Below, one piece after another: positions 16,791 through 49,440 of a stretch of DNA of 64,000 nt. Position 1 is the stretch's first letter; every line of letters begins with the position of its first letter. Source of the DNA: Oscillospiraceae bacterium (GTDB taxonomy: Bacteria; Bacillota; Clostridia; Oscillospirales; CAG-382); NCBI GenBank assembly GCA_015063785.1, contig SVTM01000008.1, positions 12,406 through 76,405 of the forward strand. The letters are read 5' to 3'. The notes beneath the pieces were generated by a model, which saw only the letters and a list, made by a program, of their open reading frames with translations, was not told where the DNA came from and made no database searches. A program made the position numbers and the translations under genes.

Positions 16791-17183
16791 TCAGCCGAGT
16801 CCCACAAGAAGCGCCTGATCGGGCGAAAAATAATCGTCAAGGTTCGAGCTAAATCCTGCCGCTTTCCATGCGCGGTCAAAGGGGATATCCTCGATATTGG
16901 AAAGAAAAACGAAGGTGCTGTCACGCACGGCGGCGTGCATTCTGCCGGTTATGACAAGGCGGTATTTATATATTTCTCCGCTTTCGGTCTTGTAGGTTCC
17001 GTCGCTCATTTCATAATACTTGGCGGTGTTGACGATCTCGCCATTGTCAAAGGCAGACTCTACCATAGAAGACTCGGTGATCTCGTAGGTTTTTACAATA
17101 CTTATTTCCTTTTTTGCACATCCGAAAAGAAGAAGCGACAAAAGGGCAAGCATCAAAGCAAGTTTTTTCATTCTTTTTTTCAT
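16791..17183 (-). CDS. small lipoprotein, function unknown
   Basis: Signal peptide with lipobox (LLSLLLFGC). ATGA overlap with the upstream membrane-protein gene. Last gene of the blaI-like operon. Confidence 0.6.
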   Translation of the reverse strand: MKKRMKKLALMLALLSLLLFGCAKKEISIVKTYEITESSMVESAFDNGEIVNTAKYYEMSDGTYKTESGEIYKYRLVITGRMHAAVRDSTFVFLSNIEDIPFDRAWKAAGFSSNLDDYFSPDQALLVGLG

Positions 17184-17192
17184 TCTTTTTTT
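17169..17192 (-). repeat. perfect tandem duplication of a 12-nt unit containing A7 tracts and an ATG
   Basis: The plus strand reads CATTCTTTTTTT twice. The minus strand reads GGAGG-AAAAAAAGAATG-AAAAAAAGAATG-AAAAAA, giving the MKKRMKK start of the lipoprotein gene. Confidence 0.9.
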
Positions 17193-18154
17193 CCTCCTTT
17201 TTTCCCAAAGCCTTCAACGGCGTTTATCAAAAGATAGCACAGAACACCCGAAACGGCGATTATCACAAGATCGCAGAGCGAAAAGGGAAACTTTCCCATA
17301 CTGTCAAAGAAAAATCCGCGGCCGTACCGATAAAGCTTTCCCGAAAGAAGTATCAATTCGCCCACGTACATCACGATAACTGTGATGACAGATGTCACGC
17401 AGGGCAAAATCAGCGAAAAGAGCTTGCGTTTTCCGACGGCAAACGAGGCGTGGAAAATACCTGCGGTAAGTCCGAAAACGACAAAGAACACTGACATCAG
17501 AATTGCAGACAAGGGAGACACCACAATCTCGCCGGTGCGCCAAAACGCCGTGAAGCAGGCAAGAATGCAAAGGGCAAGAAACAAAAACGTCGAAACCGAC
17601 TGGAGCACCAGAGTTTTTGTGCGGCGCTTGCCTTTTCCTGCGGCAAGATCCGAAAAACCGTAGATGCAATTTAGTATTGCCACCACAAGAAGCACCGAAA
17701 TTATGTAAAAATGAAGCTTGAAGGCAGGCGAATAGTCGCCGATAAGCATTTGTTCTGCGCTATACACCTTTGTGGTATAGCTGGACGGTGCGACCATGCA
17801 CATATACATCTGCCAGCTTTCAAGTGAGGTTTCCACCGTTTCGGTCACTATCACAAGCTTTTCGAGCAAAAGCTCTGTGGCAAAAAACACGCCGACCGAC
17901 ACAGCCGAAGAAAGAGCAAAAGCCGCTTTTTTAAGATATTTTTGCGATAACGGCATGATAAGGGTGCCAAAGATCACCGCAAGGCTTATGGGGGTGTAGG
18001 GGATGATATATTTCGGATAGTTTTCGGCAAGGACCGTGCCGTCGCATATCATATCCGAAAGGACGCACACACCCATGTACAAAGGATAAAAGGATGCCGC
18101 AAGAATTATTGCCAAAGCGATAAGATAAGAAAGTGTATGTTTTTTGTTTTTCAT
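17180..18154 (-). CDS. polytopic membrane protein, function unknown
   Basis: 324 aa with ~8 predicted TM helices. It lies 13 nt downstream of the BlaR1-like gene on the same strand. Confidence 0.6.
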   Translation of the reverse strand: MKNKKHTLSYLIALAIILAASFYPLYMGVCVLSDMICDGTVLAENYPKYIIPYTPISLAVIFGTLIMPLSQKYLKKAAFALSSAVSVGVFFATELLLEKLVIVTETVETSLESWQMYMCMVAPSSYTTKVYSAEQMLIGDYSPAFKLHFYIISVLLVVAILNCIYGFSDLAAGKGKRRTKTLVLQSVSTFLFLALCILACFTAFWRTGEIVVSPLSAILMSVFFVVFGLTAGIFHASFAVGKRKLFSLILPCVTSVITVIVMYVGELILLSGKLYRYGRGFFFDSMGKFPFSLCDLVIIAVSGVLCYLLINAVEGFGKKGGKKE

Positions 18155-18167
18155 GTTTTTTCTCCTT

Positions 18168-19091
18168 TCACATAGCGTTTGTTAAAAGAAAATAGAATAT
18201 TGCACACCACAAGATCACAAAACAGATAAGCGAAAAAACCGACATCTTTTTGTACGACAGAATGTTTTCTATCCTTGTTCTCACCTTTGCGCCGCCGAAG
18301 GCGGATGCAAACACCGTGGCGTTTTCTTTGAAATCAAGAAGCGCCGATGCGTAAAGCTTCTTTTCGTCTTTGCCGCAGGATTTCAAAACGCTTTCGTCGC
18401 AGGCAAGCTCGGTATCGGCAAGAAAAAGCTTTAAAAACACCCACGACAAGGGATTGAACCAATGCACAAACACAGCAAGAAATGCGAGGATGCGAAAAAA
18501 ATTGTCCCCCCGTCTGATATGCGCTTTTTCGTGCATAAGGACATATTTTGTATCCATATTTTTTGCGCAGATCGGAAGAATGATCTTTGGTTTTAAAATA
18601 CCGTAAACGGCAGGCACGTCTACCTTTTTTGAAAAATAAATATTGTCCCGAAAGTGCTCGCTTGCCGAAAGCTCGTGCAGGGTGGTAAAATATATGGCAA
18701 AAAACGCGATAACAAGTGCCACCACCCCACAAAGCCAGATGAGCGAAGCTGTGTCAAAAAGCTTTTCGAGTACGTTCGACTTGTACTCGATGGGAAAATA
18801 GCTTTTTGCCGACTGAAGAAAATTCATGTACGAAATAACAGGTACGTCGCGCAGCTCGTAAACCACCACCGTTTTGGTGGCAAACTTTGAAAAAAGCGAC
18901 ATCAGACTGTATTTACCCGAAATTCCAAAAGGCACTGCCGCTCTTAAAAACGGAATGATCCACAAAAAGTGCACCAACCTTTTGGGAAGCTTTTTTATTC
19001 TTCGCAGAACAAGAACAAATGCTCCTGCGATACTTGCGGCGATGCTCATGTTAAAGACCCAATAAAAAATGTTGCCAAGCATGGCGGTCAC
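18168..19091 (-). CDS. BlaR1/MecR1-type M56 peptidase, short form without penicillin-binding sensor domain
   Basis: N-terminal TM helices and the HExxH zinc motif in LMHEKAHIRRGDNF, characteristic of M56 signal-transducing peptidases. Only 307 aa. 4-nt overlap with the BlaI-like gene. Confidence 0.8.
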   Translation of the reverse strand: MTAMLGNIFYWVFNMSIAASIAGAFVLVLRRIKKLPKRLVHFLWIIPFLRAAVPFGISGKYSLMSLFSKFATKTVVVYELRDVPVISYMNFLQSAKSYFPIEYKSNVLEKLFDTASLIWLCGVVALVIAFFAIYFTTLHELSASEHFRDNIYFSKKVDVPAVYGILKPKIILPICAKNMDTKYVLMHEKAHIRRGDNFFRILAFLAVFVHWFNPLSWVFLKLFLADTELACDESVLKSCGKDEKKLYASALLDFKENATVFASAFGGAKVRTRIENILSYKKMSVFSLICFVILWCAIFYFLLTNAM

Positions 19092-19444
19092 CTTTTGTCT
19101 ATCATGCGGCGAAGCTCTTCGATGTCGTCACCCGTCAGCTCCTCGTCGTCAAGAAGGGCGGAAAAGAGAGCTTTTTTCGAGCCGCCAAAGAGCCTTTCCA
19201 CAAGACCTTTGGTTTCGTTTTTTCTGACGGCATCCCGCGTGACAAGAGAGGTACAGACAAAGCCGGGGTCCTCCCTTTTGATATACCCTTTTTCTTCAAG
19301 CTTTTTGATGACGGTGTAGGTGGTGTTTTTGTTCCAGCCGATCTTGTCTGCTGCAACCACACTTATATCCTTTGCCGACACGGGTTCGCTGTCCCATATT
19401 ATCTCCATCACTTTTATCTCGCTGTCAAAAATTTTTTCTTTCAT
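19088..19444 (-). CDS. BlaI/MecI/CopY family transcriptional repressor
   Basis: 118 aa winged-helix protein (EIKVMEIIWDSEPVSAKDI...WNKNTTYTVIKKLEEKGYI), typical of BlaI/MecI. GGAGG RBS. Confidence 0.85.
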   Translation of the reverse strand: MKEKIFDSEIKVMEIIWDSEPVSAKDISVVAADKIGWNKNTTYTVIKKLEEKGYIKREDPGFVCTSLVTRDAVRKNETKGLVERLFGGSKKALFSALLDDEELTGDDIEELRRMIDKR

Positions 19445-20531: not shown

Positions 20532-20665
20532 AAAAAAATACCTGCTTTCAATCGTCATACGAATATATTACACTTAAATTGATTGTTTGTCAATAGACTA
20601 CAGGGACTTGTAATATTCACATTTATATGCTATCATTTATTAAATCTTACTTTGGGAGAATAGAT

Positions 20666-23600
20666 ATGAAAACAAAAAAACAAATATTTAGCAAAGCTCT
20701 ATCGATGCTGATGCTGATATCTTTGATATCGGGAGTGTTTGTTTTTCACGGCGTAAAGGCAATAGCGTCAGACACAATTTATGTAAGCCCCACGGGATCC
20801 GACTCTGCCGTGGGTACAAGAGAAGCTCCCCTTGCCACCCTGGAATGTGCTTTCGAAAAGCTTGACGGCGGAGGAACGGTCGTTATTATGGGTGCGCTTT
20901 CTGCCGACAAAACGGTGATGAACGCCGCAGTTACCCAAAAATGCTCGGCGACAAAGCCGATAATCATAACAGGCCGTGATCCTTATGATGGCACTTTATT
21001 TGAAAACGCCACCCTGCCCTACAATTCGCCCCGACTTTACGGCGAAATGAAATTTGAGCATCTCGTCCTTGCCCCCACAAGGAACTACGCCTTTTTCAAC
21101 ACATACGGCAACCGTATAATCTTTGGTGATGGGCTGAAGAATGCGAATTTTGACGTTTATGTTCACGGCGGAAGCTTTGGAAACACAACGGCAAAAAGCT
21201 CGTATATCGAGCTTTGTTCGGGCAGGCTTACGACTGTGTACATGGGCGGCGCCTTTGCCACAAATACATCAAACGGCGTATACGGCGATACAAAATTTGT
21301 CATAAACGGCGGAAATGCCACAAACCTTTGTATCGGTTTTGACACAAGTTCGAGCAATCACACACAAGGAACGATAAACGGAAACGTTATCATCCGTCAC
21401 AACGGCGGACTTATCAACAAGATATATTCGAAAAATCTTGTTGATAACAAGGTGTGCGGATATATCGCCATTATTTCAAAGGGCGGACTTTCTGCCGACA
21501 TCACATCAATCCCAAATGCGCAGGACGGCACGTATATCGTAACCGTCTCGGGCAAAGGCGAAGTGAACGAAACAGAAACTGCAGGAGTTTTTGAAATAAT
21601 TCCAGAAAGCGGATATATGGCGTATGTTAACGGGAAACTCGTTACAGACACGCAAGCTACATTCGAAAAGGGCGAAAGTACTGTTAAATTTTTGAAAGAC
21701 ACGGTACCGGTATATTATGAAGGTGTGCTTGTGGATGCAAAGGAAGACGGGTTTGCACCAAACGTGCTTGCCACAAGGCTTGATATTGCAAATGCCGCGG
21801 CAAGATGCCTTGAAAACAAAAAAGTTTCATACGATTACGCCACCCTGTGCTCTATTCTCGCCTCAAACAGTGCGCTTCCCCACGGCTGGGAGAACGGAAA
21901 CGGACAAGAACCGATCACAAAGGCCGAAAGCGTTTTCATTCTGATAAATCTTTTTGATGCCCACACCGACAGCACAAAGCTTTTTGACTTTGCCGACGTG
22001 ACGGACGATCACATATACGCCGATGCAATAAGAATTGCTGCAGGCAAAGGCAAGCTTTGCGGCTCGTCGGGCGATGTGTTTTTCCCCGACAAGCAGATAT
22101 CGAGATACGAGCTTTGCGAAATGCTTGCATTTTACCTTGACCGTGCGGCAAAAGATGATGCGGTTTGTCCTTTTTCTGACGTTCTGCAGGAAATGAGATC
22201 CGCCGTATGTGCCGCGGCAAGCGACAGAATACAAGGTCTTTGGGACTTTGAAGAAAGAAGGTACATCCTGCCCGACTCGGCCGAAACCCGAGATTATATA
22301 GAATCACTTCATTCGCAGTCGGCACATCTTTCGCCGGACGGCATCAAAGAAGCCTCCGACATCATTGCCGAAAAGATGCGTGAAAACATTCTGTTGACCC
22401 CCAACACAAGGGAGATTTACGATTTTGACGCACTCGGAATAAAAACCATATACTATGTTTCCGAAAAAAACGGCAACGATTCAAACAACGGATTGTCGCA
22501 AAACTCCCCCTTCAAAACTCCTGCCGCCCTTGTGGGCAAGGTGCAGGGAAACAGAAACGTCGCAGTTCTTTTTGAACGCGGTGGAATATACCGCGTCGGA
22601 ACAACCGGGGCTCTGAACCTTTCGGGATCGAAAAACATTCTGCTCGGAAGCTACGGTACAGGTCAAAAGCCGCTTGTCGTCCAGTCGCGATGGAACTATG
22701 CAAAAGACAACTGGACCCAAGTAAACCCCAATGTTTACAGGCTGGAAACTCCACTGCGCAACGTGGGCGTTATGGCGTTTGACCACGAAGTCACAGATTA
22801 TTCCGACGGCACCTACGACGAGCTTTTCGGCGAGATAGAAAACATAGGAACACAAGGTTTTAACGGCATACATGATCTTAAGAAAGATCTGCAATTCTAT
22901 TGCGAGCTTCAGCCGACATATACCGAAACCACCACCGAAGAAACTGTGAACGGGCAAAAAATCGTGACAAAAGTCACCACCGAAAGCTACGACAGATTTT
23001 CGGAAGGGTATCTGTATTTATATTCGGAACACGGCAACCCCTCAGAACGCTTTTCGTCAATCGAGATCGGCGAAAACTACGATCTTGTGGACGGCGGAGC
23101 ACACGGATGTATTATTGACAATATCTCGTTCAAATACACAGGTTCCCACGGAATAGGCCTTGGCGTGGGCGAAGATCTCACCGTTTCAAACTGCATCTTC
23201 TCGTGGCTTGGCGGCTCGGTGCTGTGGGAGACAGAAAAGGTGACCACCACCGTCACAAACGAAACGACAGGCGAAAGCCAAACTACCGAGACTTTCGAAG
23301 AGGCCACCTGCTATGGCAACGCTGTTGAAGTTTACGGTCCGTGCGACGGATATTATGTCAAAAACAACTGGATCTATCAGATATTTGACGACGGCATAAC
23401 AAATCAGTTCCACGGAGAAACAGACTGTATACAAAAAGATATCGTGTACACCGAGAATCTTCTTGAATATGTGTATCATATGTTCTCGAACAGCAAGTCC
23501 AACAAGGAGTATTACGAAAGTACCGATTTTCCCACCGAGGGCAACGGCGCCCCATCATCATACACGGCAAATCTTGAGCTTTCGTACAATGTCTGCCGTA

Positions 23601-24472
23601 TGGCAGGTTACGGCTGGGGCGGTCCGATGAAAAACCGTGTGCACACGGGCATGATGTACCGCACATACGTTGCCGACTACAACAAGGACGAAAATGTACT
23701 CTACAACATTTTCGATTCCAACGGCGGATACACCGTTTTTTCGGCATCCAACGCCCATGACAGTTATGACGGCAACATATATATTCAAAGTGCAGGGACA
23801 AAACTTCGCTCTAAATTGAAAACAGGCATCACCACATACGATGACAAAGCCCACCGCAACATAAAAACGCTTTTGGGCGATGAAAATGCTATTGTCGTTC
23901 TTGACGATCCCAACGAGATATCCGATTGCCGCAAGATAAAAGACAAGCTTACCTTTGTCGGCGCACAGATAAGGGCAGACAGTACCCACGCTCTGCGTTT
24001 TCTGTTTTCGATAAGCAGAGATTCTTTCGATAAAATGTCTCCCGATGAGCTTCCGAAAAGCTCGGCAGACACAGGCGCAGGCTTTGGCGCCGTGATCATC
24101 CCCGAAAGCTTCTTTGACGGGACAAAGCTTTACAAAAACACAATGTCGATATATAACGGCACACCCATAAGAGCAGGCGTTGTCCCTGCCGTAAGGATAT
24201 ATGCACAAAGCGAGGAGGAAATAATCTTCACCCTGTGCGTAACAGATATCCTGCCGCAAAATTACACGAGGAAATTCATCGCCGTGCCCTATCTTTCATA
24301 CGAAGACGAAGGGGCGCTGAAGACGGTATACGGCGAGCAGACGTCGGGCATTTCAATGTACGACATTGCACAGTTTGCCTGGCGCGATCCTGCAAACTCA
24401 CAAAGCATCCGCGATTCGATATACGACAGTATTCTTTCTGTGGTAGATCCACAAAAATATCCGCCAAGATAA
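20666..24472 (+). CDS. giant secreted protein A1: B-type repeat unit + SLH-like repeats + parallel beta-helix + shared C-terminal module
   Basis: GGGAG RBS and signal peptide (MKTKKQIFSKALSMLMLISLISGVFVFHGVKAIA). SLH-like segments (FADVTDDHIYADAIRIAAGKG..., FSDVLQEM...). Beta-helix region homologous to A2 (YYVSEKNGNDSNNG..., NNWIYQIFDDGITNQ). Confidence 0.8.
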   Translation: MKTKKQIFSKALSMLMLISLISGVFVFHGVKAIASDTIYVSPTGSDSAVGTREAPLATLECAFEKLDGGGTVVIMGALSADKTVMNAAVTQKCSATKPIIITGRDPYDGTLFENATLPYNSPRLYGEMKFEHLVLAPTRNYAFFNTYGNRIIFGDGLKNANFDVYVHGGSFGNTTAKSSYIELCSGRLTTVYMGGAFATNTSNGVYGDTKFVINGGNATNLCIGFDTSSSNHTQGTINGNVIIRHNGGLINKIYSKNLVDNKVCGYIAIISKGGLSADITSIPNAQDGTYIVTVSGKGEVNETETAGVFEIIPESGYMAYVNGKLVTDTQATFEKGESTVKFLKDTVPVYYEGVLVDAKEDGFAPNVLATRLDIANAAARCLENKKVSYDYATLCSILASNSALPHGWENGNGQEPITKAESVFILINLFDAHTDSTKLFDFADVTDDHIYADAIRIAAGKGKLCGSSGDVFFPDKQISRYELCEMLAFYLDRAAKDDAVCPFSDVLQEMRSAVCAAASDRIQGLWDFEERRYILPDSAETRDYIESLHSQSAHLSPDGIKEASDIIAEKMRENILLTPNTREIYDFDALGIKTIYYVSEKNGNDSNNGLSQNSPFKTPAALVGKVQGNRNVAVLFERGGIYRVGTTGALNLSGSKNILLGSYGTGQKPLVVQSRWNYAKDNWTQVNPNVYRLETPLRNVGVMAFDHEVTDYSDGTYDELFGEIENIGTQGFNGIHDLKKDLQFYCELQPTYTETTTEETVNGQKIVTKVTTESYDRFSEGYLYLYSEHGNPSERFSSIEIGENYDLVDGGAHGCIIDNISFKYTGSHGIGLGVGEDLTVSNCIFSWLGGSVLWETEKVTTTVTNETTGESQTTETFEEATCYGNAVEVYGPCDGYYVKNNWIYQIFDDGITNQFHGETDCIQKDIVYTENLLEYVYHMFSNSKSNKEYYESTDFPTEGNGAPSSYTANLELSYNVCRMAGYGWGGPMKNRVHTGMMYRTYVADYNKDENVLYNIFDSNGGYTVFSASNAHDSYDGNIYIQSAGTKLRSKLKTGITTYDDKAHRNIKTLLGDENAIVVLDDPNEISDCRKIKDKLTFVGAQIRADSTHALRFLFSISRDSFDKMSPDELPKSSADTGAGFGAVIIPESFFDGTKLYKNTMSIYNGTPIRAGVVPAVRIYAQSEEEIIFTLCVTDILPQNYTRKFIAVPYLSYEDEGALKTVYGEQTSGISMYDIAQFAWRDPANSQSIRDSIYDSILSVVDPQKYPPR
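23948..24361 (+). other. shared ~130-140 aa module (copy in A1, C-terminal)
   Basis: LTFVGAQIRADSTHALRFLFSI...GFGAVIIPESF...RIYAQSEEEIIFTLCVTDILPQNYTRKFIAVPYLSYEDEG aligns block by block with the copies in B1 and B2. Confidence 0.6.
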
Positions 24473-24473
24473 A

Positions 24474-24520
24474 ATTCACCCCGAAAACACGTTTTGATGT
24501 TTTCGGGGTGAATATTTTTT
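24474..24520. terminator. bidirectional terminator between convergent A1 and B1
   Basis: 16-bp stem ATTCACCCCGAAAACA / TGTTTTCGGGGTGAAT with an 8-nt loop. T-run on the plus side and A-run on the other. Confidence 0.85.
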
Positions 24521-24525
24521 GCCTT

Positions 24526-27500
24526 TTAATGAACTATGATCTTTGTGACGTTGCCCTTTGAATATGCAGAGGATGTCATGGTGTACTGAGGAATGAAATC
24601 GGTGACGTTGTTAGTTCCCTCCTCGACAGATACGGCAAATTCGGAATAGTAAGGCGAATGGGTGTGACCTGTGAAGAAGCCGTAGATGACATCGCTGTAT
24701 TCCTTGAAGAGCGAGAAGATTGCCTTGTTTGCTTCATTCGAGCTCATGGCGATACCTTCTTTTGTGAAATCGCGCAGACCTGAGCTGTCGCTGCGTCCCG
24801 GAATATAATCTGTCTGATCGACCGCAGTTTCGTTGGGATTATAGGTTCTGATGGGAATGTGGAAGAAAACGAGAACCGCATATCCCTTTTCGCGGGCAAG
24901 GGCAAGGTCTGCCTTAAAGGGCTCTACCTGCGAATCCCAGAAGCGCGATGCCGTGCCGTCGTCCATCTGAACAAGAAGCACTCTGTCGCCCACAAGGCTG
25001 GACGAATACAAAACATCGTGACCTGTCCAGTTTTCCTGAAGTATGGCGTGGCGCGATTCGATGGTTGTGGGATCGGGAGCTTTTTGTCCCTCGGGCTGCT
25101 GGCAGACACGTGTTCCCTCGTGGTTGCCGAGAGCTGCAAGGGCGTAAGGATAAACGTCGAAGATGTGCTTGTTTGCAAGCTCCATGGCGCCACGCGAGAG
25201 GAAATCAAGAGTGTCGCCCGTGATCACCATGGCGTCGCCCATGTAGGCGTATCTGAGAACCTTTTGACCGATGGGAACAGTGTTTTTGAAGCCCTGTCTG
25301 CCGATATAGGTGGACATGATGGAAGGATTTGCTTCTTCAAAGTCCTGTGCGTTGGTGTAATTGAAATGGATATCCGAAGCCTGCATGATCACAAGGGGTT
25401 CTCTGTCGGTCTGTCCCTCCACATAATCATCGGGGTATACGTGCACGTCTCTGACCTGAAGGCCCGTGTCGCCGATCTCGTAGACGTGCTTGAAGCTGTT
25501 GGGATCGTCGGGAGATCCTGCAACCGTCGTGATCTTGCCGCTGTATTCGTTTGCAATTGCAGCTTTTACGGTATCTACAACACTTCTGTAATACAAATCC
25601 TGCTCTGCCGGAATCTTGATCTTTCCGGCATCGGCAAGGCGGATGATGGTTTCTGCAATGTTGACGTGTCTTGTGGCATAATAATCAGAGTAAAGGACGC
25701 GGTCAACGCCGTTATAGTCCTTGAATCTGACATATCCGCGCACTGTGTACATGCGGTCGTAGTATTCTTCTGCCATGTTGGCGATAACTACGGTGTAACG
25801 CACGGCATCGCTTGTCTTTTCGTAAATCTTTACCGCCTCCACCTCGGCAGACGAGAACTTTGCGCCGTTGTAATCGTATACTGTGTCAAGCTCAAGCTGA
25901 TGTTCGGTGAGGTCGGGATAGTCATAAAGCACAGACGAAGGAATGACGGCAGAGCCAAAGCTTTCTACTGTAGGAAGCTTTGTATCTACCGAATCGCTCT
26001 TTCTGATCATAAAGCGCAGACCCACAGAACCTCCGGTTCTGATCTGGGCGCCTTCGATATAAAATTCGGTGTCAAGATCTATTTCGGCATAGTTTGCCAC
26101 AAGGACGTCGCCGTTTTTAAATTCGCCCTTTTCGGGGATGCTTCCGTCCTCGAAAGTCCAGCCGATAAACGTCTTTCCCGCAACCTTTGCGTGGGAAACG
26201 GTTGAGAGATCAAGCGGCATGTCGGCATAGAAATCTATTCTTGTGCCGCTGTTGGTGTAATACACCTTGTCGACAAATTCGATGGTGTATTCGCCGGATT
26301 CGGGAAGATGCAGGGTTCCGTCTGCCGAAACATACTGGTATCCTGCCTTTTCTGTGGCAAGGGCAGTTTTTCCGCCGACAACCTTGAAGATGCCTGCTGT
26401 GGTGTTTGCCGTGAGATAATCGGTGTCGGTAAAGTTTTCGGTGTTTATCTTCCATACGTAGGGAAGCACAAATTCAGTGTAGGCAGAAACCTTTCCGCCG
26501 TTCATAAACAGGTTGATGCCTGTGTTTTCGTTATATGTGGCGCGCACTTCTGCTCCGCCGAGCGTTTTGATAAGTCCGCCTTCGTTGAGATAGATATTGA
26601 CAACTCCGTCATATACCGACGGGAGATTATAATACTGATTGTTTGCCACATTTGACCAGCCATCGGCAGAAACGCTGAACAGCGTAACTTCGGCGTTGAT
26701 CTCGTAATCTCCGCCGGGGAAAGATCTGGGCACGGTGTTATAATAAGTTCCTGCGTAAATCGTTCCGACGTCGGAATTTATAACCACTTTTTCCCTTCCG
26801 CCCTTGGACGAGTTCATTGCACCCGAATGCAGACCAAACTTTGCTTCAAAGCTGCCTTCACGTTCAAAAAGAACGTTTTCGCCGATAACAAGCTTAAAGC
26901 CTACCGTGTCGATATGTTTTGAATTTACGGCGTTTACAAATCTGATATTGCTGAACTCTGTGGGGCCGTTTGTGGTGATGGTGTCGAGCTTGCGGATGAT
27001 GCTGTTATTCGAGCCGTCACCGACAATAGTGACAAGATTTTCATGCTTTGCAAGGTTTCTGATTTCAACGTTGCCCTTGGGGATTTCATAAGTTCCGATG
27101 ATAACAACAAGCTTGTTTGTTTCCTCGCGCGCATCGGCCTTTGTGATGGCGGCGTTAAGAGTAGCAAGAGCTTTGTCGGCAGAAGTTCCGTCGTTTTCGT
27201 CGCTTCCCCCGGCGCTGTCAACATAATAAATAAAGGTGTCGGGGTTGGTGTCGTACTGCGAGGTGAGCGAAACTGTGAGCTGACCTTTTGGGGTCTGATA
27301 AACTCCGCTGTAAAGATCCCCCTCGTATCCCCAGCCCACAAAAGTTTTGCCGGGGATCTTGGGAAGCACGGGAAGTGCCACGGCACTGCCTGCGATATAT
27401 TCGCAATATTTTTCGCCGTCAAGGTACATGGTGCCAACCTGTGGCTCGTCGGCCGAATATGTTACGGCATATCTGCCTGCGGGAACAGAGAGAGTGCCGT

Positions 27501-28665
27501 CGATCGAAGCATAGGTGGTTCCCTCTTGGTTTTTCGCCCATGCGGTTTTTGCGCCGACAACTGCGAAGGTGCCTGCCGTATCGGTAACGTCAAGTCCGCT
27601 TCCTGTTGTATCTTTGGAATCCATATACCAAATACCGTCGGCAGAAACAAGCTCTTCGGGGATGGCGGTATAATTTGCGCCGTTGTTGGAAACTATCTGA
27701 AGACCGCCCTTGATCTTTGCAATTTCAGAGCCCTTTATCTTATTGACGTAGCTGCCGTTGTTCACGACAAGCGAAAGTCCGTCTTCAAAGGTAGACGCCG
27801 CCTGACCCCAGCTGAGAGAGCCGTTTTCCGACGCGCCGTTCAGATAATACTTTACGTGTCCCGTAAAGCTTGCAGCCTTTGAGGAGGTAACCACAAGGCC
27901 GTATCTGGGATCGGAATCGGCAGGAATGGCAGTATTGAAGATCGCGGTAAGTCCGCTCTTTGCCTTGGTGTCGGCGGCAGAGGGACTGAAACGGAAATGT
28001 CCTGCTGCAATGCCGTTGTAGCTGCTGTTACCCACAGAGTTGTCGGCAACCTGGTACATAAACGAAACATTGTTGAAGGTGACATCGTGACCGTTGGCAT
28101 AGATCTCTCGGTCAACGTGTCTTGTGACAACAAGGGTGATGTCCTCGAAAACAGTGGGGCCTCCGAGAGTTATGGTGGTGTTGAGTCCGACTATTTCAGA
28201 CTGAAAGAGCTTTGCATCGTCGGTATAGCCCTTTACAACAATGGTTGCGGCGTGTTCGCCTGCAGATGCACCCCTTTGTGCCCAGGCAGTCTGTCTGCCC
28301 ACAATATTTGCGCCCTTTACAACAGGCTTTCCGCCGAGATAATTGCCGTCGGCGTCATACCACCAGGGCTCTGTGTGAGCTTTTCCCGAGGTCATGTCTG
28401 CGCTAAGGGTGTCGTCGTTCATCACATAGATCTCGACGGTGTCCCCTTCGCCATAGCCTTTATCGTTGATAAGCGCGATGGCATCGGCAACTGTTGAAAC
28501 GGGAGAATCGGGAGAGGTGCCTGTGCCGCTGCAATGCCACTTTACATAGTATTTGGGGATAGTATTGTCGGCATTGTCTATTGCAAAAACGTTGAATGCG
28601 CACACCGAAAGGATCATGCACAGACAAAGCAAAAGGCTTGTAAGCCTTGAAAAGCTTTTTTTCAT
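24526..28665 (-). CDS. giant secreted protein B1: two tandem repeat units + shared module + C-terminal metallophosphoesterase
   Basis: GAGGAG RBS 7 nt before ATG 28665, and a signal peptide (MKKSFSRLTSLLLCLCMILSVCAFNVFA). Listeria-Bacteroides-type B-repeats (GKTFVGWGYEG, GKTFIGWTFEDG). Calcineurin-like motifs ASDIHFN, ITGDTLD, LGNHEG, FFHIP, TGHTHSP. Confidence 0.8.
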   Translation of the reverse strand: MKKSFSRLTSLLLCLCMILSVCAFNVFAIDNADNTIPKYYVKWHCSGTGTSPDSPVSTVADAIALINDKGYGEGDTVEIYVMNDDTLSADMTSGKAHTEPWWYDADGNYLGGKPVVKGANIVGRQTAWAQRGASAGEHAATIVVKGYTDDAKLFQSEIVGLNTTITLGGPTVFEDITLVVTRHVDREIYANGHDVTFNNVSFMYQVADNSVGNSSYNGIAAGHFRFSPSAADTKAKSGLTAIFNTAIPADSDPRYGLVVTSSKAASFTGHVKYYLNGASENGSLSWGQAASTFEDGLSLVVNNGSYVNKIKGSEIAKIKGGLQIVSNNGANYTAIPEELVSADGIWYMDSKDTTGSGLDVTDTAGTFAVVGAKTAWAKNQEGTTYASIDGTLSVPAGRYAVTYSADEPQVGTMYLDGEKYCEYIAGSAVALPVLPKIPGKTFVGWGYEGDLYSGVYQTPKGQLTVSLTSQYDTNPDTFIYYVDSAGGSDENDGTSADKALATLNAAITKADAREETNKLVVIIGTYEIPKGNVEIRNLAKHENLVTIVGDGSNNSIIRKLDTITTNGPTEFSNIRFVNAVNSKHIDTVGFKLVIGENVLFEREGSFEAKFGLHSGAMNSSKGGREKVVINSDVGTIYAGTYYNTVPRSFPGGDYEINAEVTLFSVSADGWSNVANNQYYNLPSVYDGVVNIYLNEGGLIKTLGGAEVRATYNENTGINLFMNGGKVSAYTEFVLPYVWKINTENFTDTDYLTANTTAGIFKVVGGKTALATEKAGYQYVSADGTLHLPESGEYTIEFVDKVYYTNSGTRIDFYADMPLDLSTVSHAKVAGKTFIGWTFEDGSIPEKGEFKNGDVLVANYAEIDLDTEFYIEGAQIRTGGSVGLRFMIRKSDSVDTKLPTVESFGSAVIPSSVLYDYPDLTEHQLELDTVYDYNGAKFSSAEVEAVKIYEKTSDAVRYTVVIANMAEEYYDRMYTVRGYVRFKDYNGVDRVLYSDYYATRHVNIAETIIRLADAGKIKIPAEQDLYYRSVVDTVKAAIANEYSGKITTVAGSPDDPNSFKHVYEIGDTGLQVRDVHVYPDDYVEGQTDREPLVIMQASDIHFNYTNAQDFEEANPSIMSTYIGRQGFKNTVPIGQKVLRYAYMGDAMVITGDTLDFLSRGAMELANKHIFDVYPYALAALGNHEGTRVCQQPEGQKAPDPTTIESRHAILQENWTGHDVLYSSSLVGDRVLLVQMDDGTASRFWDSQVEPFKADLALAREKGYAVLVFFHIPIRTYNPNETAVDQTDYIPGRSDSSGLRDFTKEGIAMSSNEANKAIFSLFKEYSDVIYGFFTGHTHSPYYSEFAVSVEEGTNNVTDFIPQYTMTSSAYSKGNVTKIIVH
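25663..26067 (-). other. shared ~130-140 aa module (copy in B1)
   Basis: EFYIEGAQIRTGGSVGLRFMIRKSD...FGSAVIPSSVL...KIYEKTSDAVRYTVVIANMAEEYYDRMYTVRGYVRFKDYNG. Confidence 0.6.
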
Positions 28666-28685
28666 TATATTGCTCCTCATTTTTC

Positions 28686-28720
28686 AAAACAAGGCACATA
28701 AGTAAAAACCATGTGCCTTG
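28686..28720 (-). terminator. weak intercistronic hairpin/terminator between A2 and B1
   Basis: Minus strand: CAAGGCACAT-ggtttttactt-ATGTGCCTTG followed by only TTTT. It ends ~20 nt before the B1 RBS. Confidence 0.5.
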
Positions 28721-28732
28721 CCTTTTAATAAT

Positions 28733-31660
28733 TTATTTTGTAATAAGTACAAATACGGGGCTTGTATCCTTAAGATTCTTTTGGATGATCTCTGCCGCAT
28801 CTTCGGCAGCGTTGGCAGATTTACCCTTGAGCGTACCGAGATGTCCGTTTTTGCGCTGGATGTAGATGTTCGAGTCGAATTCTTCCTTCGAACGCTTGTC
28901 AATATCGATCAGATAGCCTGCAGAGCGGTCGAGGATATTGTTCTGAGCTTTGAGGTTGCTGTTTTTGGCATCAACGGTTGTGAAAGAGTAAAGACGAGCC
29001 GAGCTGGTACGGTTGGCAACGATAGTACCCCAGCCATATCCGCAATTGCGAAGCACATTGTCTTTTGCAAGATAGTTGTGGGTTTCGGGGGACTTTGTGC
29101 TCTTTGAGATCCAGCATTCGATTCCCCAGTGGGTATATTCCATAAGGTTGCCTGCATATTCGATGTTTTTCATCGTGTAGTCAACACCCTGGTGGGTAAC
29201 GGCGGTATCATAGATCTGATACATCCAGTTGTTTCTGACATAATATCCGTCGCAGCTGCCATAAAGCTGAACAGCATTTCCGTATGCGCCGCTGCCGCTG
29301 TCATACGAGCCCATCTGCGAGCCGCCGATCCATGCAAATTCACTGTTTGTTACGGTGAAGTTGCCTGCATAGTTTACATTGATACCGTGAGCGCCTGTGA
29401 ATCTTACGTTGAGGTTATCGACCACAACGTCTGTGCCGGAACCGGACAGAATATGGACCTTGGGACCGATCTCGATAGACTTGAATCTTTCGCCGGGGTT
29501 GCCGCCTTCGCAGTAGAGATAAAGGGTATCATTGGTGGGATAGAATTCGAGGTCTTTTGCAAGGTTTGCATAACCCGAAACGTGCTTGCCGTAGTATCTG
29601 GGGATACCGTAAAGAGCGTCATAGTTTCCGTGGTCTGCAAAATCGTGGTCAAACGCCATTACACCGACGTTTGCAATCTTATCGACAAGCTCGTATACGT
29701 TGGGAGCGTCTGTTGCCTTCCAAAGAGCGGGATCTGCAAAGTTTTTGGGAGACGCTGTGATAATCGGCTTTTCGCCTTCGCCGTACGAGCCGTAGATACA
29801 GCTCTGAAGCATATTAACCGTGCCGCGATATACGCCGCCGCGCTCGAAGAGAATGGCTGTGCCCTTCTTGGGGAATCTGAGCTTCTTTTCGAGAGCTGCA
29901 AGGGTCTTCAGAGGCTTGTCGGGGGACTTGCCGTTGTTTTCATCGTTTCCGTTCTTTTCGGAAATGTAATAGGTATTGCCGCTCATAAGATGACCGTAGA
30001 TGTCTGCAGTGTTCTTTGTGCCGAGGATATCCTTTTTCATCTGTTCGGCAATAACGTCAACGCCTTCGCGGATGGCATCACCCGTGAGTCCCTTTGCCTG
30101 GGTGTGAAGGGCTTTAATGTATTCGCCTGCGTTTGTTCCTTCGAGAACATATTTCTTTTCGGCATTATCAACAGTCCATGCACCCTCTGCCTTTGCGGAG
30201 GAGGAAGCGATGATCTGTCCCTTTGCCCAGTGGCCTTCGATGTCCGAGAACTTGCTTGTGCCCGATCCGTTGGAAACTCTGCCGATGAGGCGGTTGATAA
30301 CAGTTACCGTTTCGGCACGGGTGATATTGTTTGCGGCAAGGAAGGTGCCGTCTTCGTATCCTGTGATGATTCCGTTGGACACAGCATACATAACGGCGTC
30401 AAAGCATCTGTCCTTTGTGGTAACGTCGGTGATGAGAGAAAGCCTTAAGCTGCCGTAGTTTTTGTCGGCAATGGCATAGATGATCTCAACAAATTCGCCA
30501 CGGGTAATCTTGGTGTTGGGCTCGAAATTGCCACTCCAGATCGAAAGAGCGCCGAGGTTTTCAAGGGTTGTTACTGCATTGTAGTACCATGCGTCTGCCG
30601 TAACATCGGCAAAGGCTGTTGTACCCATGTCCTTGCCTGTGGGGTTGACGAGAGAAGCGATGATCTTGCAGGCTTCGGCACGGGTTACGTTGTTCTGAGG
30701 AAGGAATGTGCCGTCGGGATAACCGTTGATGTAGGCTGTCTCAAGAGAAGCAAAATCAAAGACATAGTTGAAGACGGGGATGTAGTTGACATCCTTGCCC
30801 GCACGCATCTGAACGGTGGTGCCGGGGGTGTAAGTCTTGTTGTCGAAAGTGCACTTCCAGGTAAGAAACTCCATGTTTTCGGGAGCAGTTCCTGTAAATT
30901 CGGGGATTGTATAATAATCGAGGTCCTTTGTGTTCACAACTGTAAGAGCGGCAGAACCTTCGTCACCCGAGAGGAAGTTTGCCTTTCTGTCAAGGATGAT
31001 ATTGCCGACTGCAGGGTCCCAGCTCTGTACAGAAACGTCAGAGATGTAAAGCACGTCGGATTTGCCCATATTGGCTTCGCCGAGCAAAGGATAAAGCTTG
31101 ATCTGGCGGAGGTAGTAAATATCATCGGTAAGCTTTGCTCTCTTTTCTGCAGAAGCTTCACCCAAGGGAAATACCATCTGATCCCACTTGTTTGCAACCA
31201 TGCCGTTGCGGGACTTTACCGATACACCAAAGCTTACGCCTTCTGTTATGTCCTTGTCGCCGCAGATATTCACCTGGGTCCAGGTCATCTGATGACCGTT
31301 GAGGGCAGGCTCGGCATCGGGAGACTGATAGTAGTAGTCAACTACAATATATTTTGCGCCCGAAAGAGGAATGGGCTCGCCGATATCGTCAAGCAAAGTG
31401 CCCCAACGATAGTAGCAAAACCCGTTTTTGGTGGCGTCTGCACCTGTGCGCTTGAGCACGTGGGAGTTTCTGCCATCAAAAACATCCATAGACTTGACGT
31501 AGCCGTCATAGTCACCTTCAAACGCCGAAATGTTGGATGCAGGAACCTTCTGCTCGCCGAAGGTGTCAAGGGGGTGGATGACCTTGTCCACCGCAAGAAC
31601 TGCGGGAACGCAGGAAGCTCCAAGACAAAGAGCAAGAAGGATGGAAAGTAATTTTTTCAT
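28733..31660 (-). CDS. giant secreted protein A2: N-terminal domain + SLH repeats + parallel beta-helix
   Basis: ATG 31660 gives the signal peptide MKKLLSILLALCLGASCVPAVLA. SLH repeats lie at about 30200..30765 (FADVTADAWYYNAV, ITDVTTKDRCFDAV...ITRAETVTVINRL, FSDIEGHWAKGQ). Beta-helix region: YYISEKNGNDENNGKSPDKPLKTL, NNWMYQIYDTAVTHQ. Confidence 0.8.
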   Translation of the reverse strand: MKKLLSILLALCLGASCVPAVLAVDKVIHPLDTFGEQKVPASNISAFEGDYDGYVKSMDVFDGRNSHVLKRTGADATKNGFCYYRWGTLLDDIGEPIPLSGAKYIVVDYYYQSPDAEPALNGHQMTWTQVNICGDKDITEGVSFGVSVKSRNGMVANKWDQMVFPLGEASAEKRAKLTDDIYYLRQIKLYPLLGEANMGKSDVLYISDVSVQSWDPAVGNIILDRKANFLSGDEGSAALTVVNTKDLDYYTIPEFTGTAPENMEFLTWKCTFDNKTYTPGTTVQMRAGKDVNYIPVFNYVFDFASLETAYINGYPDGTFLPQNNVTRAEACKIIASLVNPTGKDMGTTAFADVTADAWYYNAVTTLENLGALSIWSGNFEPNTKITRGEFVEIIYAIADKNYGSLRLSLITDVTTKDRCFDAVMYAVSNGIITGYEDGTFLAANNITRAETVTVINRLIGRVSNGSGTSKFSDIEGHWAKGQIIASSSAKAEGAWTVDNAEKKYVLEGTNAGEYIKALHTQAKGLTGDAIREGVDVIAEQMKKDILGTKNTADIYGHLMSGNTYYISEKNGNDENNGKSPDKPLKTLAALEKKLRFPKKGTAILFERGGVYRGTVNMLQSCIYGSYGEGEKPIITASPKNFADPALWKATDAPNVYELVDKIANVGVMAFDHDFADHGNYDALYGIPRYYGKHVSGYANLAKDLEFYPTNDTLYLYCEGGNPGERFKSIEIGPKVHILSGSGTDVVVDNLNVRFTGAHGINVNYAGNFTVTNSEFAWIGGSQMGSYDSGSGAYGNAVQLYGSCDGYYVRNNWMYQIYDTAVTHQGVDYTMKNIEYAGNLMEYTHWGIECWISKSTKSPETHNYLAKDNVLRNCGYGWGTIVANRTSSARLYSFTTVDAKNSNLKAQNNILDRSAGYLIDIDKRSKEEFDSNIYIQRKNGHLGTLKGKSANAAEDAAEIIQKNLKDTSPVFVLITK

Positions 31661-31732: not shown

Positions 31733-31811
31733 TAACAATATAGAAAATGGAACAGTTTTTTTGATATTTATATAAAATTTTAAAGATTTTCTCCACTTTA
31801 TTTATATAATC

Positions 31812-31869: not shown

Positions 31870-32487
31870 TTATGCTTTTATTTCGGCAAAGCCTATGCCA
31901 AAAGGTGCAAAAGTCTGCTCAAGCTCGTCGGTGGCAAAAAGATCCTTTTCAAAGAGGAAAGTACCCTGTGCCAAGCCGTCTGTGAAGGTAACGGCAACAC
32001 CGATGCCTGCATTGAAAACGTAAAGGTAGGTCACAGGCTCTTTTGCCGAAATAGCTTCGTTTTTAACCACTGCGCTGTACAGCGAGCAAAAAGCGATGTA
32101 TTCCTGTCCCATTGTCGAGTTTATCATATTGGCAACGGTTGAAAAGCCAACACGGTTTTCGATCTGTGTTTTTAAGGTATCGGGAATATTGTCCCAGCCG
32201 TATGTGTCGGCAATGCCCATGTTTTTCACAAGCTCTTCCGACGTGGGAAGCGAAAGCTTGTACACGCTTTCGGGCTTTGAAAAATCAAGCTCCTTTACCC
32301 TTTCGGTCACGTCTTCAAGCAGATTGGGAACTCCCATCATATCGGCATATTCTTCGCTGTTTACCATTTCGTGCATTATTGATGCCACAGAAAGGCCTTC
32401 TTTGTAAAGATCCACATTTTTTGCCGAACAGCCTGCAAAAGGCAGAGCAAGCATAATAATTGCGAGAAAAAGACATATTTTTTTCAT
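31870..32487 (-). CDS. lipoprotein, function unknown
   Basis: AGGAG RBS and ATG 32487, giving MKKICLFLAIIMLALPFAGC (lipobox). It lies 79 nt downstream of the ABC exporter genes on the same strand. Confidence 0.55.
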   Translation of the reverse strand: MKKICLFLAIIMLALPFAGCSAKNVDLYKEGLSVASIMHEMVNSEEYADMMGVPNLLEDVTERVKELDFSKPESVYKLSLPTSEELVKNMGIADTYGWDNIPDTLKTQIENRVGFSTVANMINSTMGQEYIAFCSLYSAVVKNEAISAKEPVTYLYVFNAGIGVAVTFTDGLAQGTFLFEKDLFATDELEQTFAPFGIGFAEIKA

Positions 32488-32566
32488 CGTTATATCTCCT
32501 TTTGTTTTTTGTTTCAGTATATCACAATCAGTTTTGAAAGTCAACCGATATTTGAGATATGCGGTT

Positions 32567-34369
32567 TTATTCATACTGCGAATTATAAAGCGAGCTGTAA
32601 AATCCGCCTTTTTTCAAAAGTTCTTCGTGATTGCCCGATTCGGTGATGACACCGTCGCGGATAACAAGAATGGTGTCGGCGTTCTTTATGGTGGAAAGTC
32701 TGTGGGCAATGACAAAGCAGGTGCGACCTTCCATCAGCCTGTTCATCGCCTGCTGAATCTTCATTTCGGTTCTCGAGTCAACGTTTGACGTTGCCTCGTC
32801 AAGAATAAGCATGGAAGAGCCCGAAATCATGGCGCGGGCAATGGTGATGAGCTGGCGCTGACCTTTGGAGATGTTTACGCCGTCGTCGGTAAGCACCGTG
32901 TCGTATCCGTCGGGCAGAGATTCGATGAATCCGTCGATCTTTGCCGTCTTTGCCGCCTCTTTCACTTCTTCAAGAGTGGCGTTTTCTCTGCCATAGGCGA
33001 TGTTTTCAAAGATTGTACCTTTGAAAAGCCAGGTATCCTGAAGCACCATGGTGTATGCCTTGCGAAGAGATGCACGGGTTATATCAAGGCAGTCTTTTCC
33101 ATCCACCGTAATACTGCCGTCATTTATGTCATAAAAGCGCATGAGAAGATTGATGACGGTGGTTTTTCCCGCCCCCGTGGGGCCGACGATGGCAACTGTT
33201 TTGCCCGGTTCTGCCACGAAGGATATATTTTTGAGTATGGTCTTTTCGGGAGTATAGCCAAATGTTACGTCTGAAAGCTCCACCCTTCCGATGACATCCG
33301 AAAGCTCAAAGGCCTCTGTCTTATCAATCGGTTCGGGCTGCTCATCAATGACGGCAAAAACTCGCTCTGCCGCAGAAAAAGCAGATTGCAGCTCGGTTAT
33401 GATATTGGCAAACTCGTTTATCGGTCCTGCAAATTTTCGCGAATACTGAACAAACTTTGCAATTCCGCCAAGCGTTATAAAAAATATCGCCCCCTCCTGC
33501 ACCGTGCCGTTCTGCGAGAACATATATAGTATTCCGCCGACGATCATGATGAGGGATATAGAAAGATTATTGATGAAATTGACCGAAGGGCCTGTGATCG
33601 CGCCGTGATAATCCGCCTTGTAATAGGCGTCCATAGCGTCTGTGTTGCGCAGGTTAAAACGGCCGCTTACAGTGTCTTCTCTGTTGTACGCCTGTATCGT
33701 GCGGCAGCCTGTCAGCATTTCTTCTGCATATCCGTTCAGCTCGCCGAGTTTGCGCGATCGGGTGGAAAAAAGCGGACGGACAAGCCTTGAACGGTAACGG
33801 GTGAAAATTATCGCCGCAGGAACGGTTATGGCAAAAACAAGTATCAGCGGTTTTGATATGTTCCACATAAAAACAAGCGAGCCTATGACTGTATAAATGC
33901 TTGTCATTATCTGCACAAGATCGTGGGAAAGAGTGCTGTTTATTGTGTCGATATCGTAGGATATGTGGCTGATTATCTCGCCGGTCTGGTGAGTGTCGAA
34001 ATAGCCGACGGGAAGACTTGTGAGTTTTTCAAACACCTGCTTTCGCATGGTGTACACTATTCTTTGGCTCATGTTTATCATAATAACCGAAAGAATGTAC
34101 GAAAGCAATGCCGAAACAAGATAACAGACGAGCATTTTCAAAACGTTTTCTTTTACAATGGCAAAGTTAACGCTTTCGCCTGCCAAAGCATCTATGGCGT
34201 CGCCCGAATATTTCGGTCCCATCAGCGACAGCTGGTTTGAAAACAGCGTGAAGATTATGGCAGGAACAAAAAGGTACCAATATTTAAGAACGTAACCACA
34301 AAGACGGAAAAAAACTCCTTTTTTTGATCTTTTTTCTTCGGTCGTTCCTTTTTTTCGCTTGTCAGTCAA
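32567..34369 (-). CDS. ABC exporter permease/ATPase fusion, subunit with non-canonical signature motif
   Basis: 6-TM domain plus NBD. Walker A GPTGAGKTT and Walker B ILILDEAT, but the signature reads NISKGQRQL instead of LSGGQ. Confidence 0.9.
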   Translation of the reverse strand: MTDKRKKGTTEEKRSKKGVFFRLCGYVLKYWYLFVPAIIFTLFSNQLSLMGPKYSGDAIDALAGESVNFAIVKENVLKMLVCYLVSALLSYILSVIMINMSQRIVYTMRKQVFEKLTSLPVGYFDTHQTGEIISHISYDIDTINSTLSHDLVQIMTSIYTVIGSLVFMWNISKPLILVFAITVPAAIIFTRYRSRLVRPLFSTRSRKLGELNGYAEEMLTGCRTIQAYNREDTVSGRFNLRNTDAMDAYYKADYHGAITGPSVNFINNLSISLIMIVGGILYMFSQNGTVQEGAIFFITLGGIAKFVQYSRKFAGPINEFANIITELQSAFSAAERVFAVIDEQPEPIDKTEAFELSDVIGRVELSDVTFGYTPEKTILKNISFVAEPGKTVAIVGPTGAGKTTVINLLMRFYDINDGSITVDGKDCLDITRASLRKAYTMVLQDTWLFKGTIFENIAYGRENATLEEVKEAAKTAKIDGFIESLPDGYDTVLTDDGVNISKGQRQLITIARAMISGSSMLILDEATSNVDSRTEMKIQQAMNRLMEGRTCFVIAHRLSTIKNADTILVIRDGVITESGNHEELLKKGGFYSSLYNSQYE

Positions 34370-49336: not shown

Positions 49337-49440
49337 CTCGGTTTTTGAAATTATTATACATGATTTTTGAACTTTTGTACTATTATTGTATCACAATATG
49401 TGTCATAATGCAAGTATAAAAGCAAAAAAGGAGAACAGGC

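Follow-up and report, generated by a model that had tools for sequence, protein, structure and literature searches.

Gene and domain organisation of the locus

The window analysed here is a stretch of 64,000 nucleotides from an Oscillospiraceae bacterium (GenBank assembly GCA_015063785.1, contig SVTM01000008.1, positions 12,406 to 76,405 of the forward strand), and all positions given below refer to it. We studied three giant exoprotein genes, A1, B1 and A2, which lie side by side at 20666-31660, together with a second B-family gene, B2, located beyond this interval. A1 (20666..24472, + strand) belongs to an open reading frame (ORF) that opens at 20627 and specifies 1281 aa, with M14 (position 20666) as the probable start. 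B1 (24526..28680, - strand) encodes 1384 aa. A2 (28733..31660, - strand) belongs to an ORF opening at 31738 and specifying 1001 aa, with M27 (position 31660) as the probable start, and B2 (44047..48339, - strand) encodes 1430 aa. The initial annotation, prepared from the nucleotide sequence alone, had described the interval as filled by three long ORFs with signal peptides. The ORFs are real, and on inspection the N-termini of A1, B1 and A2 each combine a Lys/Arg-rich start, a hydrophobic stretch and an A-x-A-like site, as is typical of Sec signal peptides. The N-terminus of B2, inspected in the same manner, was also typical.

The proteins are built from a small set of modules. In A1, the signal peptide is followed by a beta-solenoid (referred to here as the unit), a degenerate S-layer homology (SLH) region, a right-handed beta-helix resembling glycoside hydrolases of family GH136 (the A core) and a C-terminal module (the C-module). 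A2 carries an N-terminal domain of its own, three SLH repeats and the A core. The order in B1 is signal peptide, unit 1, small beta domain, unit 2, small beta domain, C-module, helical linker and metallophosphoesterase, while B2 consists of a signal peptide, an extra N-terminal domain, two units, the C-module and the metallophosphoesterase. A hidden Markov model (HMM) scan of the window found the unit, core and C-module set in just four ORFs, namely A1, A2, B1 and B2.

Homology among the four proteins

All-against-all BLASTP comparison aligned residues 430-1092 of A1 with residues 411-998 of A2 at 34% identity (E 1e-97), which bears out the earlier proposal that both proteins share one SLH-like and beta-helix core. 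Residues 51-324 of A1 matched residues 565-833 of B2 (27% identity, E 1e-8), and the end of A1 matched both B2 (1112-1262 versus 945-1084, E 2e-13) and B1 (1112-1227 versus 877-988, E 3e-9). B1 and B2 were alignable end to end, with 33% identity over approximately 1276 aa, and the unit was internally duplicated within each of them. Profile comparisons with hhalign were based on independent sets, comprising 10 A1 orthologues and 8 B-family proteins. The N-terminal unit of the A1 family aligned with the last unit of the B proteins over 266 columns (probability 98%, E 1.6e-13), and the C-modules of the two families were aligned with a probability of 99.6% (E 7e-24).

The initial annotation had held that A1 begins with the unit duplicated in B1 and B2, and both methods agree with it. 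The four pairs of A1 and B1 motifs that it had set against each other fall into shared HMM columns (Y50/Y486, G205/G644, N257-G259/N699-G702 and G318/G763). Its statement that the proteins end in a common C-terminal module was correct with respect to A1 and to the homology with B1 and B2, but the module is not the end of B1 and B2, which run on into a 340-aa metallophosphoesterase. According to BLASTP and hhalign, A1 thus joins an SLH region and core of the A-family type to a unit and C-module that are homologous to those of the B family. Our confidence in the homologies and architectures of the four proteins, as read from their sequences, is high.

A metallophosphoesterase at the C-terminus of B1 and B2

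The C-terminal part of B1 (24529..25545, - strand, aa 1046-1384) is a calcineurin-like metallophosphoesterase with the motifs SDIHF, TGDTLD, LGNHE, FHIP and GHTH. The PF00149 model scored 27.6 bits with the whole B1 protein, 31.2 bits with the isolated domain and 27.7 bits with B2, in each case above the cut-off of 21.5. All five metal-binding motifs (DxH, GDxxD, GNH[ED], H and GHxH) are intact in B1 and B2. The extended forms SDxHFNY, TGDxxD, LGNH[ED], FxHIP and GHxH were invariant in 7 B-family members, and across 22 diverse members D231, H233, D277, G283, D284, G313, N314, H315, H402, G466 and H469 did not vary. The catalytic part of B1 and B2 is therefore probably a C-terminal binuclear metallophosphoesterase.

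A large family of A cores with a probable relationship to GH136

The A core extends over 22412..23911 in A1 (+ strand, aa 596-1095), and in A2 it forms, together with a short helical segment ahead of it, the region 28736..30079 (- strand, aa 554-1001). The AlphaFold2 model of residues 560-1281 of A1 (predicted local distance difference test score, pLDDT, 80) consists of short helices, a right-handed beta-helix and then a beta-sandwich, with just about 50 helical residues ahead of the beta-helix. When profiles of the A-core family were searched against the PDB, the sole sequence matches were the GH136 structures 7V6M, 6KQS, 7V6I and 5GQC (E 1e-16 to 7e-13). GH136 enzymes also made up the top three Foldseek matches of the model (probability 1.0, 1.0 and 0.98). 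Searches of the PDB with the single sequences of A1, B1 and A2 returned SLH matches and one match to the N-cap, and otherwise noise.

With the A2 core as query, 433 relatives were retrieved, of which 120 were listed and form the basis of the following description. Most of these come from uncultured Clostridia and stand alone, with a length of about 470 aa; fusions to esterases occur in some, and those that bear a name are all called 'hypothetical' or 'SLH protein'; none of the 120 is named lacto-N-biosidase. In an alignment of 69 A-core members, R633, R638, E756, D844, Q850, E874 and N894 (A2 numbering) were present in all 69 sequences and E867 in 68; the invariant residues of the A1 core are R651, R656, E813, D921, Q927, E947, E961 and N988. 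A Pfam scan of the 69 members returned the generic Beta_helix family alone, and a weak match to PF22905 in A1 (E 0.07) was not confirmed in them. Taken as a whole, the A core is most likely the glycosidase beta-helix, approximately 420-500 aa long, of a large uncharacterised GH136-related family. The initial annotation knew of no described function for either architecture. This was too strong, as it had missed the intact phosphoesterase domain of the B proteins, and the sole solved relatives of the A core are GH136 glycosidases.

Genes encoding the A core were also seen in tandem. Three A2-type paralogues with N-terminal domain, SLH region and core lie in tandem in the closest metagenome-assembled genome (MAG; locus L002, 8951..17788), five A-core genes on a Ruminococcus sp. 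contig (L007, 2185..9073) and two on an Acutalibacteraceae contig (L005, 10067..12404). These arrays suggest that the family expands by tandem duplication. In another locus (L011, 9472..11343), the gene immediately after that of P0039, a homologue consisting of the A core on its own, is heparinase II/III-like (Hepar_II_III_C). Some A-core members may accordingly have an acidic polysaccharide as substrate.

SLH regions and the N-terminal domain of A2

The initial annotation had placed SLH repeats of A2 at about 30200..30765, and three repeats were indeed located at aa 326-520 (30179..30763, - strand), where they would act as a cell-wall anchor. They matched PF00395 in three stretches with 104 bits, above the threshold, and the SLH domain of Sap in the PDB with an E value of 9e-8. 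The corresponding region of A1 (21830..22411, + strand, aa 402-595) is degenerate. It scored 20.4 bits in the Pfam search, under the cut-off of 20.8, and its TRAE-like motifs have decayed to TKAE, SRYE and TRLD; it is nevertheless related to the SLH triplet of A2 (BLASTP, E 4e-6), and the A1-family profile matched the Sap SLH domain (E 5e-13). Neither SLH repeats nor an LPXTG motif were found in the B1 and B2 sequences, which is consistent with both proteins being non-anchored. The N-terminal domain of A2 (30764..31591, - strand, aa 50-325) matched no Pfam or NCBIfam family when scanned separately, and is kept in A2 orthologues and paralogues.

The unit and the C-module are promiscuous accessory modules

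The unit, a beta-solenoid of roughly 300 aa, occupies 20771..21631 in A1 (+ strand, aa 49-335; HMM match of 388 bits), and the two copies in B1 are located at 27451..28581 (unit 1, - strand, aa 34-410) and 26269..27240 (unit 2, - strand, aa 481-804). The C-module covers 23942..24469 in A1 (+ strand, aa 1106-1281), where the AlphaFold2 model shows a beta-sandwich followed by two helices, and 25546..26070 in B1 (- strand, aa 871-1045). The model of residues 480-1050 of B1 (pLDDT 91, and about 91 for the beta-solenoid of unit 2) comprises a beta-solenoid, a small beta domain, the beta-sandwich of the C-module and two helices. B2 carries an extra domain that B1 does not have, located ahead of its first unit (47905..48255, - strand, aa 29-145, APSITLNPTTIEPGNTVFDVICENTDAKDW...).

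Neither the unit alone nor the C-module alone matched a Pfam or NCBIfam family, and the small beta domains gave weak hints of Flg_new and PA14. A Foldseek search with the B1 model of unit and C-module gave no match in the PDB below E 4e-3. The best fold matches of the unit region, none of them significant, included the SiiE adhesin, and those of the C-module were weak and comprised Ig-like and CBM21 domains. In a library of viral structures, the unit matched generic beta-helix models of fibres and baseplates (E 2e-7, template modelling (TM) score about 0.2). Among 211 copies of the unit, 26 of the 27 strongly conserved columns were occupied by Gly, Ala, Asn, Thr, Val, Tyr, Pro or Leu, and the sole conserved charged residue was the Asp of the N-cap. 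Since the conserved positions are mostly glycines and form no charged cluster, we read the unit as a scaffold or binding module.

These modules are not confined to the A and B families. An exhaustive HMMER search with the profile of unit and C-module retrieved 877 clusters at 50% identity (E <= 1e-3), including 167 at E <= 1e-30, and these involve three kinds of catalytic partner. In the dominant pairing, represented by about 100 of the best 150 of the 877 clusters, the C-module is followed by the phosphoesterase and preceded by 0-5 units. Among the same best 150, no fewer than 7 proteins combine one or more units, the C-module and the GH136-like core, which is the module set of A1 in another order and without SLH, and the C-module is also present in giant GDSL/SGNH esterases. 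The unit and the C-module are thus promiscuous accessory modules, joined to a phosphoesterase, a GH136-like core or GDSL esterases, and the data suggest that they serve as non-catalytic scaffold or substrate-targeting modules.

A repeated unit without a conserved polar cluster, the presence of SLH anchors and fold matches that include the SiiE adhesin and, among viral proteins, phage fibres would also suit surface or adhesin proteins, in which the beta-helices and beta-solenoids would form S-layer-associated fibres or adhesins and the phosphoesterase would be vestigial or regulatory. We regard this as improbable. The five phosphoesterase motifs are invariant in diverse members, and the A core keeps its invariant Arg, Glu, Asp, Gln and Asn residues in 69 members that are mostly 470-aa stand-alone proteins without anchors or repeats. 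Moreover, fusions to GDSL and other esterases, as well as the glycoside hydrolase neighbours described below, point to glycan degradation.

Somewhat less probable still is a unit that is itself catalytic, for instance as a PL9-like polysaccharide lyase, which would make the B proteins poly-catalytic. Its N-cap matched the NCBIfam model PelN, and faint precomputed matches to the Pel9A-like beta-helix PF22842 were noted. However, the PelN match was restricted to residues 36-100 and reached 26 bits against a cut-off of 740. The absence of a Pfam match for the unit alone, of a charged or catalytic cluster in its 211 copies and of a significant PDB fold match likewise argues against a lyase.

Comparison of the A core with the GH136 catalytic site

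In the lacto-N-biosidase ErLnb136, the catalytic pair consists of D568 (acid/base) and D575 (nucleophile), and GH136 activity needs the helical partner domain GH136-I/LnbY (PMC7335108). E867 and E874 of the A core are spaced by 7 residues in 65 of the 69 members (14 in A1, owing to a 7-residue insertion), which is the spacing of D568 and D575. This is a lead to a possibly equivalent catalytic pair; no sequence alignment of the A core to GH136 extends to the catalytic coil. The acidic pair with GH136 spacing, the exclusive PDB sequence matches and the top three fold matches could be taken to indicate that A1 and A2 are genuine lacto-N-biosidases of family GH136, which would act on host or milk glycans and liberate lacto-N-biose. 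This is very unlikely, because the likeness is confined to the N-cap, the TM-scores are 0.2-0.3 and the conserved acids are Glu instead of Asp. In addition, the required LnbY partner (PMC7335108) was not found, no protein among the 120 relatives listed out of 433 bears the lacto-N-biosidase name, and the closest genome comes from water-buffalo colon.

Related genomes and gene neighbourhoods

The closest genome, a Clostridia MAG from water-buffalo colon, contains the same A1-B1-A2 order and a protein with 88% identity to A1. In six loci (L001, L003, L009, L010, L013 and L015), no more than about 10 kb separated A-type genes from B-type or C-module genes. L001 holds the same trio, and in L003 an A-core gene adjoins a B-type gene. 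L009 encodes orthologues of both A2 and A1 together with a GDSL giant that bears the C-module. In L010, a GH97 and GDSL giant with unit and C-module, an A1 orthologue and a 2029-aa protein with C-module and phosphoesterase are followed by a GDPD phosphodiesterase. In L013 and L015, a B orthologue has an SLH protein nearby, and the one in L013 has an N-terminal domain of the A2 type. Both genes run off the locus, and for this reason neither showed the A core. Glycoside hydrolases were frequent neighbours, with GH97, GH63-like, GH127, GH116 and GH38 enzymes represented.

The GDPD gene of L010 (20651..22249) encodes a CN_hydrolase and GDPD protein and stands directly after the 2029-aa B-like gene, near the A1 orthologue. 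It is a single case, and it fits phosphodiester catabolism.

The architecture of A1 is ancient

The order unit, SLH, core and C-module is kept end to end in 10 A1 orthologues with 53-90% identity, and across these orthologues the identities of the three modules rank in broadly the same order. In a neighbour-joining tree, the C-modules of the A1 family formed one clade of 11, whose nearest relatives were not the B1 and B2 modules but C-terminal modules from proteins that lack a phosphoesterase. Identity between the modules of A1 and their counterparts in B1 and B2 is just 24-30%. The persistence of the fusion in 10 orthologues down to 53% identity, the separate C-module clade and the low identity to the B proteins indicate that the fusion in A1 is ancient. 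The proposal of the initial annotation that the locus records domain shuffling was not supported. Judged by the test that it had itself named, agreement of module trees with whole-protein trees, there is no recent mosaicism, and the C-module clade is not sister to B1 and B2. Although the three genes are adjacent and A1 holds modules of both neighbours, recent recombination of A2-type and B1-type genes at this site is extremely improbable, given the 24-30% identity, the same four-module A1 in all 10 orthologues, the position of its C-modules in the tree and an A1 orthologue in L009 that has no B gene beside it. The three genes of the locus belong to one modular family and have been established for a long time.

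Transcription and flanking genes

A perfect hairpin with a stem of 16-17 bp and T-runs on both strands is located between the convergent genes A1 and B1 (24474..24513) and is a probable bidirectional intrinsic terminator of both. A2 lies upstream of B1 on the same strand; the two genes are separated by 52 nt and are therefore probably co-transcribed. Directly upstream of A2, on the same strand, a 234-aa ORF (31870..32574, - strand) encodes a small lipoprotein with the signal MKKICLFLAIIMLALPFAGC. This protein had no Pfam match and looks unrelated to the LnbY-like chaperone that was sought at this position.

The genes flanking the locus are ordinary chromosomal ones, including a BlaR1-like M56 peptidase, a 2-hydroxyacid dehydrogenase, an ABC exporter pair, a TRAP-type transporter and a glycyl-radical enzyme. 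The base composition is uniform across the window, and with such flanks a phage or plasmid origin of the locus was set aside. The region upstream of A1 (17180..19444 in the window, 3114..5345 in L009) contains a BlaI/BlaR1-like pair, a protein of about 320 aa from an unknown family and the 2-hydroxyacid dehydrogenase, and this gene set is syntenic in the window, L001 and L009. In L009 the pair consists of an M56 peptidase and a Penicillinase_R repressor, and the likely repressor in the window is the ORF at 19088..19444. The genes adjoining B2 (48473..52430) encode an AraC-family regulator, a glycyl-radical enzyme with PFL-like and Gly_radical domains and its radical-SAM activase. The enzyme and its activase fit a strictly anaerobic host.

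Discussion

The homologies, the architectures, their conservation and the intact motifs are shown here, and from them we infer enzymatic activity, an accessory role for the unit and the C-module and joint action on a common substrate. We consider it fairly probable that the interval encodes three multi-modular extracellular proteins from an uncultured Clostridia bacterium of the gut, two of them wall-anchored glycosidases (A1 and A2) and one a phosphoesterase (B1). Our confidence in the enzymatic function predicted for A1, A2, B1 and B2 is moderate, and it is low with regard to their substrate, for which phosphodiester glycans are candidates. According to the proposed mechanism, A2 would be held to the wall by its SLH repeats, as A1 possibly is, and the GH136-like glycosidase would be displayed at the cell surface, while B1 and B2 would be released as phosphoesterases. 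The unit and the C-module would position the catalytic domains on a polymeric substrate or direct them to it. Related bacteria pair these two modules freely with the phosphoesterase, the GH136-like helix and GDSL/SGNH esterases, and A1 is a long-fixed combination from this toolkit and not the product of recombination between its present neighbours. The genes would be clustered because their enzymes probably act jointly on one complex extracellular polymer with glycosidic, phosphodiester and perhaps acyl-ester bonds. As a glycosidase and a phosphoesterase are accompanied by an acyl-esterase in relatives, a decorated phosphodiester-containing glycan is suggested, with teichoic-acid-like or capsular polymers and phosphoglycans as possible substrates.

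Several observations weigh against this interpretation. The sequence match to GH136 spans just the first 80-100 residues of the A core, that is, the N-cap and the first coils, and the TM-scores of the GH136 Foldseek matches are low, at about 0.18-0.3. No LnbY/GH136-I partner was found in a Pfam scan of the modules, in the 69 A-core members or in the neighbouring ORF. Profile searches of the PDB gave no significant solved relative of the phosphoesterase (the best being SMPDL3A, E 0.07). The binding role assigned to the unit and the C-module derives from their conservation pattern and domain promiscuity alone. The co-localisation of A-type and B-type genes is represented by six loci of related MAGs and not by a statistical survey, and no conserved operon with a transporter or regulator surrounds the A and B orthologues, just giant exoproteins and assorted glycoside hydrolases.

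A more specific and tentative version of the proposal can be formulated, which we think possible but rather doubtful. The A core would represent a glycoside hydrolase family that is new and sister to GH136, uses Glu residues as catalysts, does without a chaperone partner and acts on another substrate; the combination of C-module and phosphoesterase would define a new family of secreted phosphodiesterases; and the unit would be a new glycan-targeting module. Together they would form a joint toolkit with which gut Clostridia degrade acylated glycans with phosphodiester linkages, for instance capsular or teichoic-acid-like polymers made by other microbes.

The A core, the C-module and the unit have no specific Pfam or CAZy-type assignment. 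If the main interpretation is true, the locus marks three sizeable unannotated building blocks of exo-enzymes of gut Clostridia, namely the A core, the phosphoesterase with its C-module and the unit. The GH136-related family, with 433 relatives, is called 'hypothetical' throughout where its members are named, and at least 877 clusters at 50% identity contain the unit and C-module. One characterised member of each would allow better annotation of proteins from rumen and colon metagenomes and could show how these bacteria degrade phosphorylated glycans. The mosaic structure of A1 represents ordinary modular enzyme evolution and has little significance on its own.

The GH136 lacto-N-biosidases (LnbX, 5GQC; ErLnb136, 6KQS; TnX, 7V6M; BsaX, 7V6I) share with the A core a right-handed beta-helix and the N-cap signature YYVSxxGxDxNxGxSxxxPxKTL ... 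ERG ... YGxGxKP. Both groups are extracellular, come from gut Firmicutes or bifidobacteria and have an acidic pair 7 residues apart. They differ in that the likeness in sequence ends after about 100 residues, the conserved acids are Glu in the A core and Asp in GH136, and the A core has no detected LnbY/GH136-I partner and is fused to SLH and, in A1, also to the unit and the C-module. The tailspike, tail-fibre and baseplate proteins of phages resemble the unit in their beta-solenoid, for which predicted phage models were the best matches (E 2e-7), but the TM-score was about 0.2, no phage genes were found in the neighbourhood, and the proteins studied here carry Sec signal peptides and SLH anchors.

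A beta-sandwich domain stands directly ahead of the catalytic domain in PhoD and in the purple acid phosphatases. The B proteins can be compared with Bacillus subtilis PhoD by function and with the purple acid phosphatases by layout: the five motifs of the PF00149 superfamily are shared with B1, and the B proteins are likewise secreted, with a beta-sandwich directly before the phosphoesterase. In contrast, they are very large, with 2-5 beta-solenoid units ahead, their C-module was not recognised as PhoD_N or Pur_ac_phosph_N, and their catalytic domain had no significant match to solved phosphoesterases. The broadest resemblance is to modular carbohydrate-active enzymes (CAZymes). These differ from the proteins of the locus in that the unit, the C-module and the N-terminal domain of A2 belong to no Pfam family and the core just to the generic Beta_helix family, and a phosphoesterase is an unusual catalytic partner. 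Nevertheless, the A proteins share with the SLH-bearing multi-modular glycoside hydrolases of Clostridia and Paenibacillus, and with modular CAZymes, a signal peptide, an SLH triplet, a catalytic module and accessory beta-sandwiches, and in modular CAZymes, as here, accessory modules are reused with different catalytic domains and paralogues are clustered or arranged in tandem.

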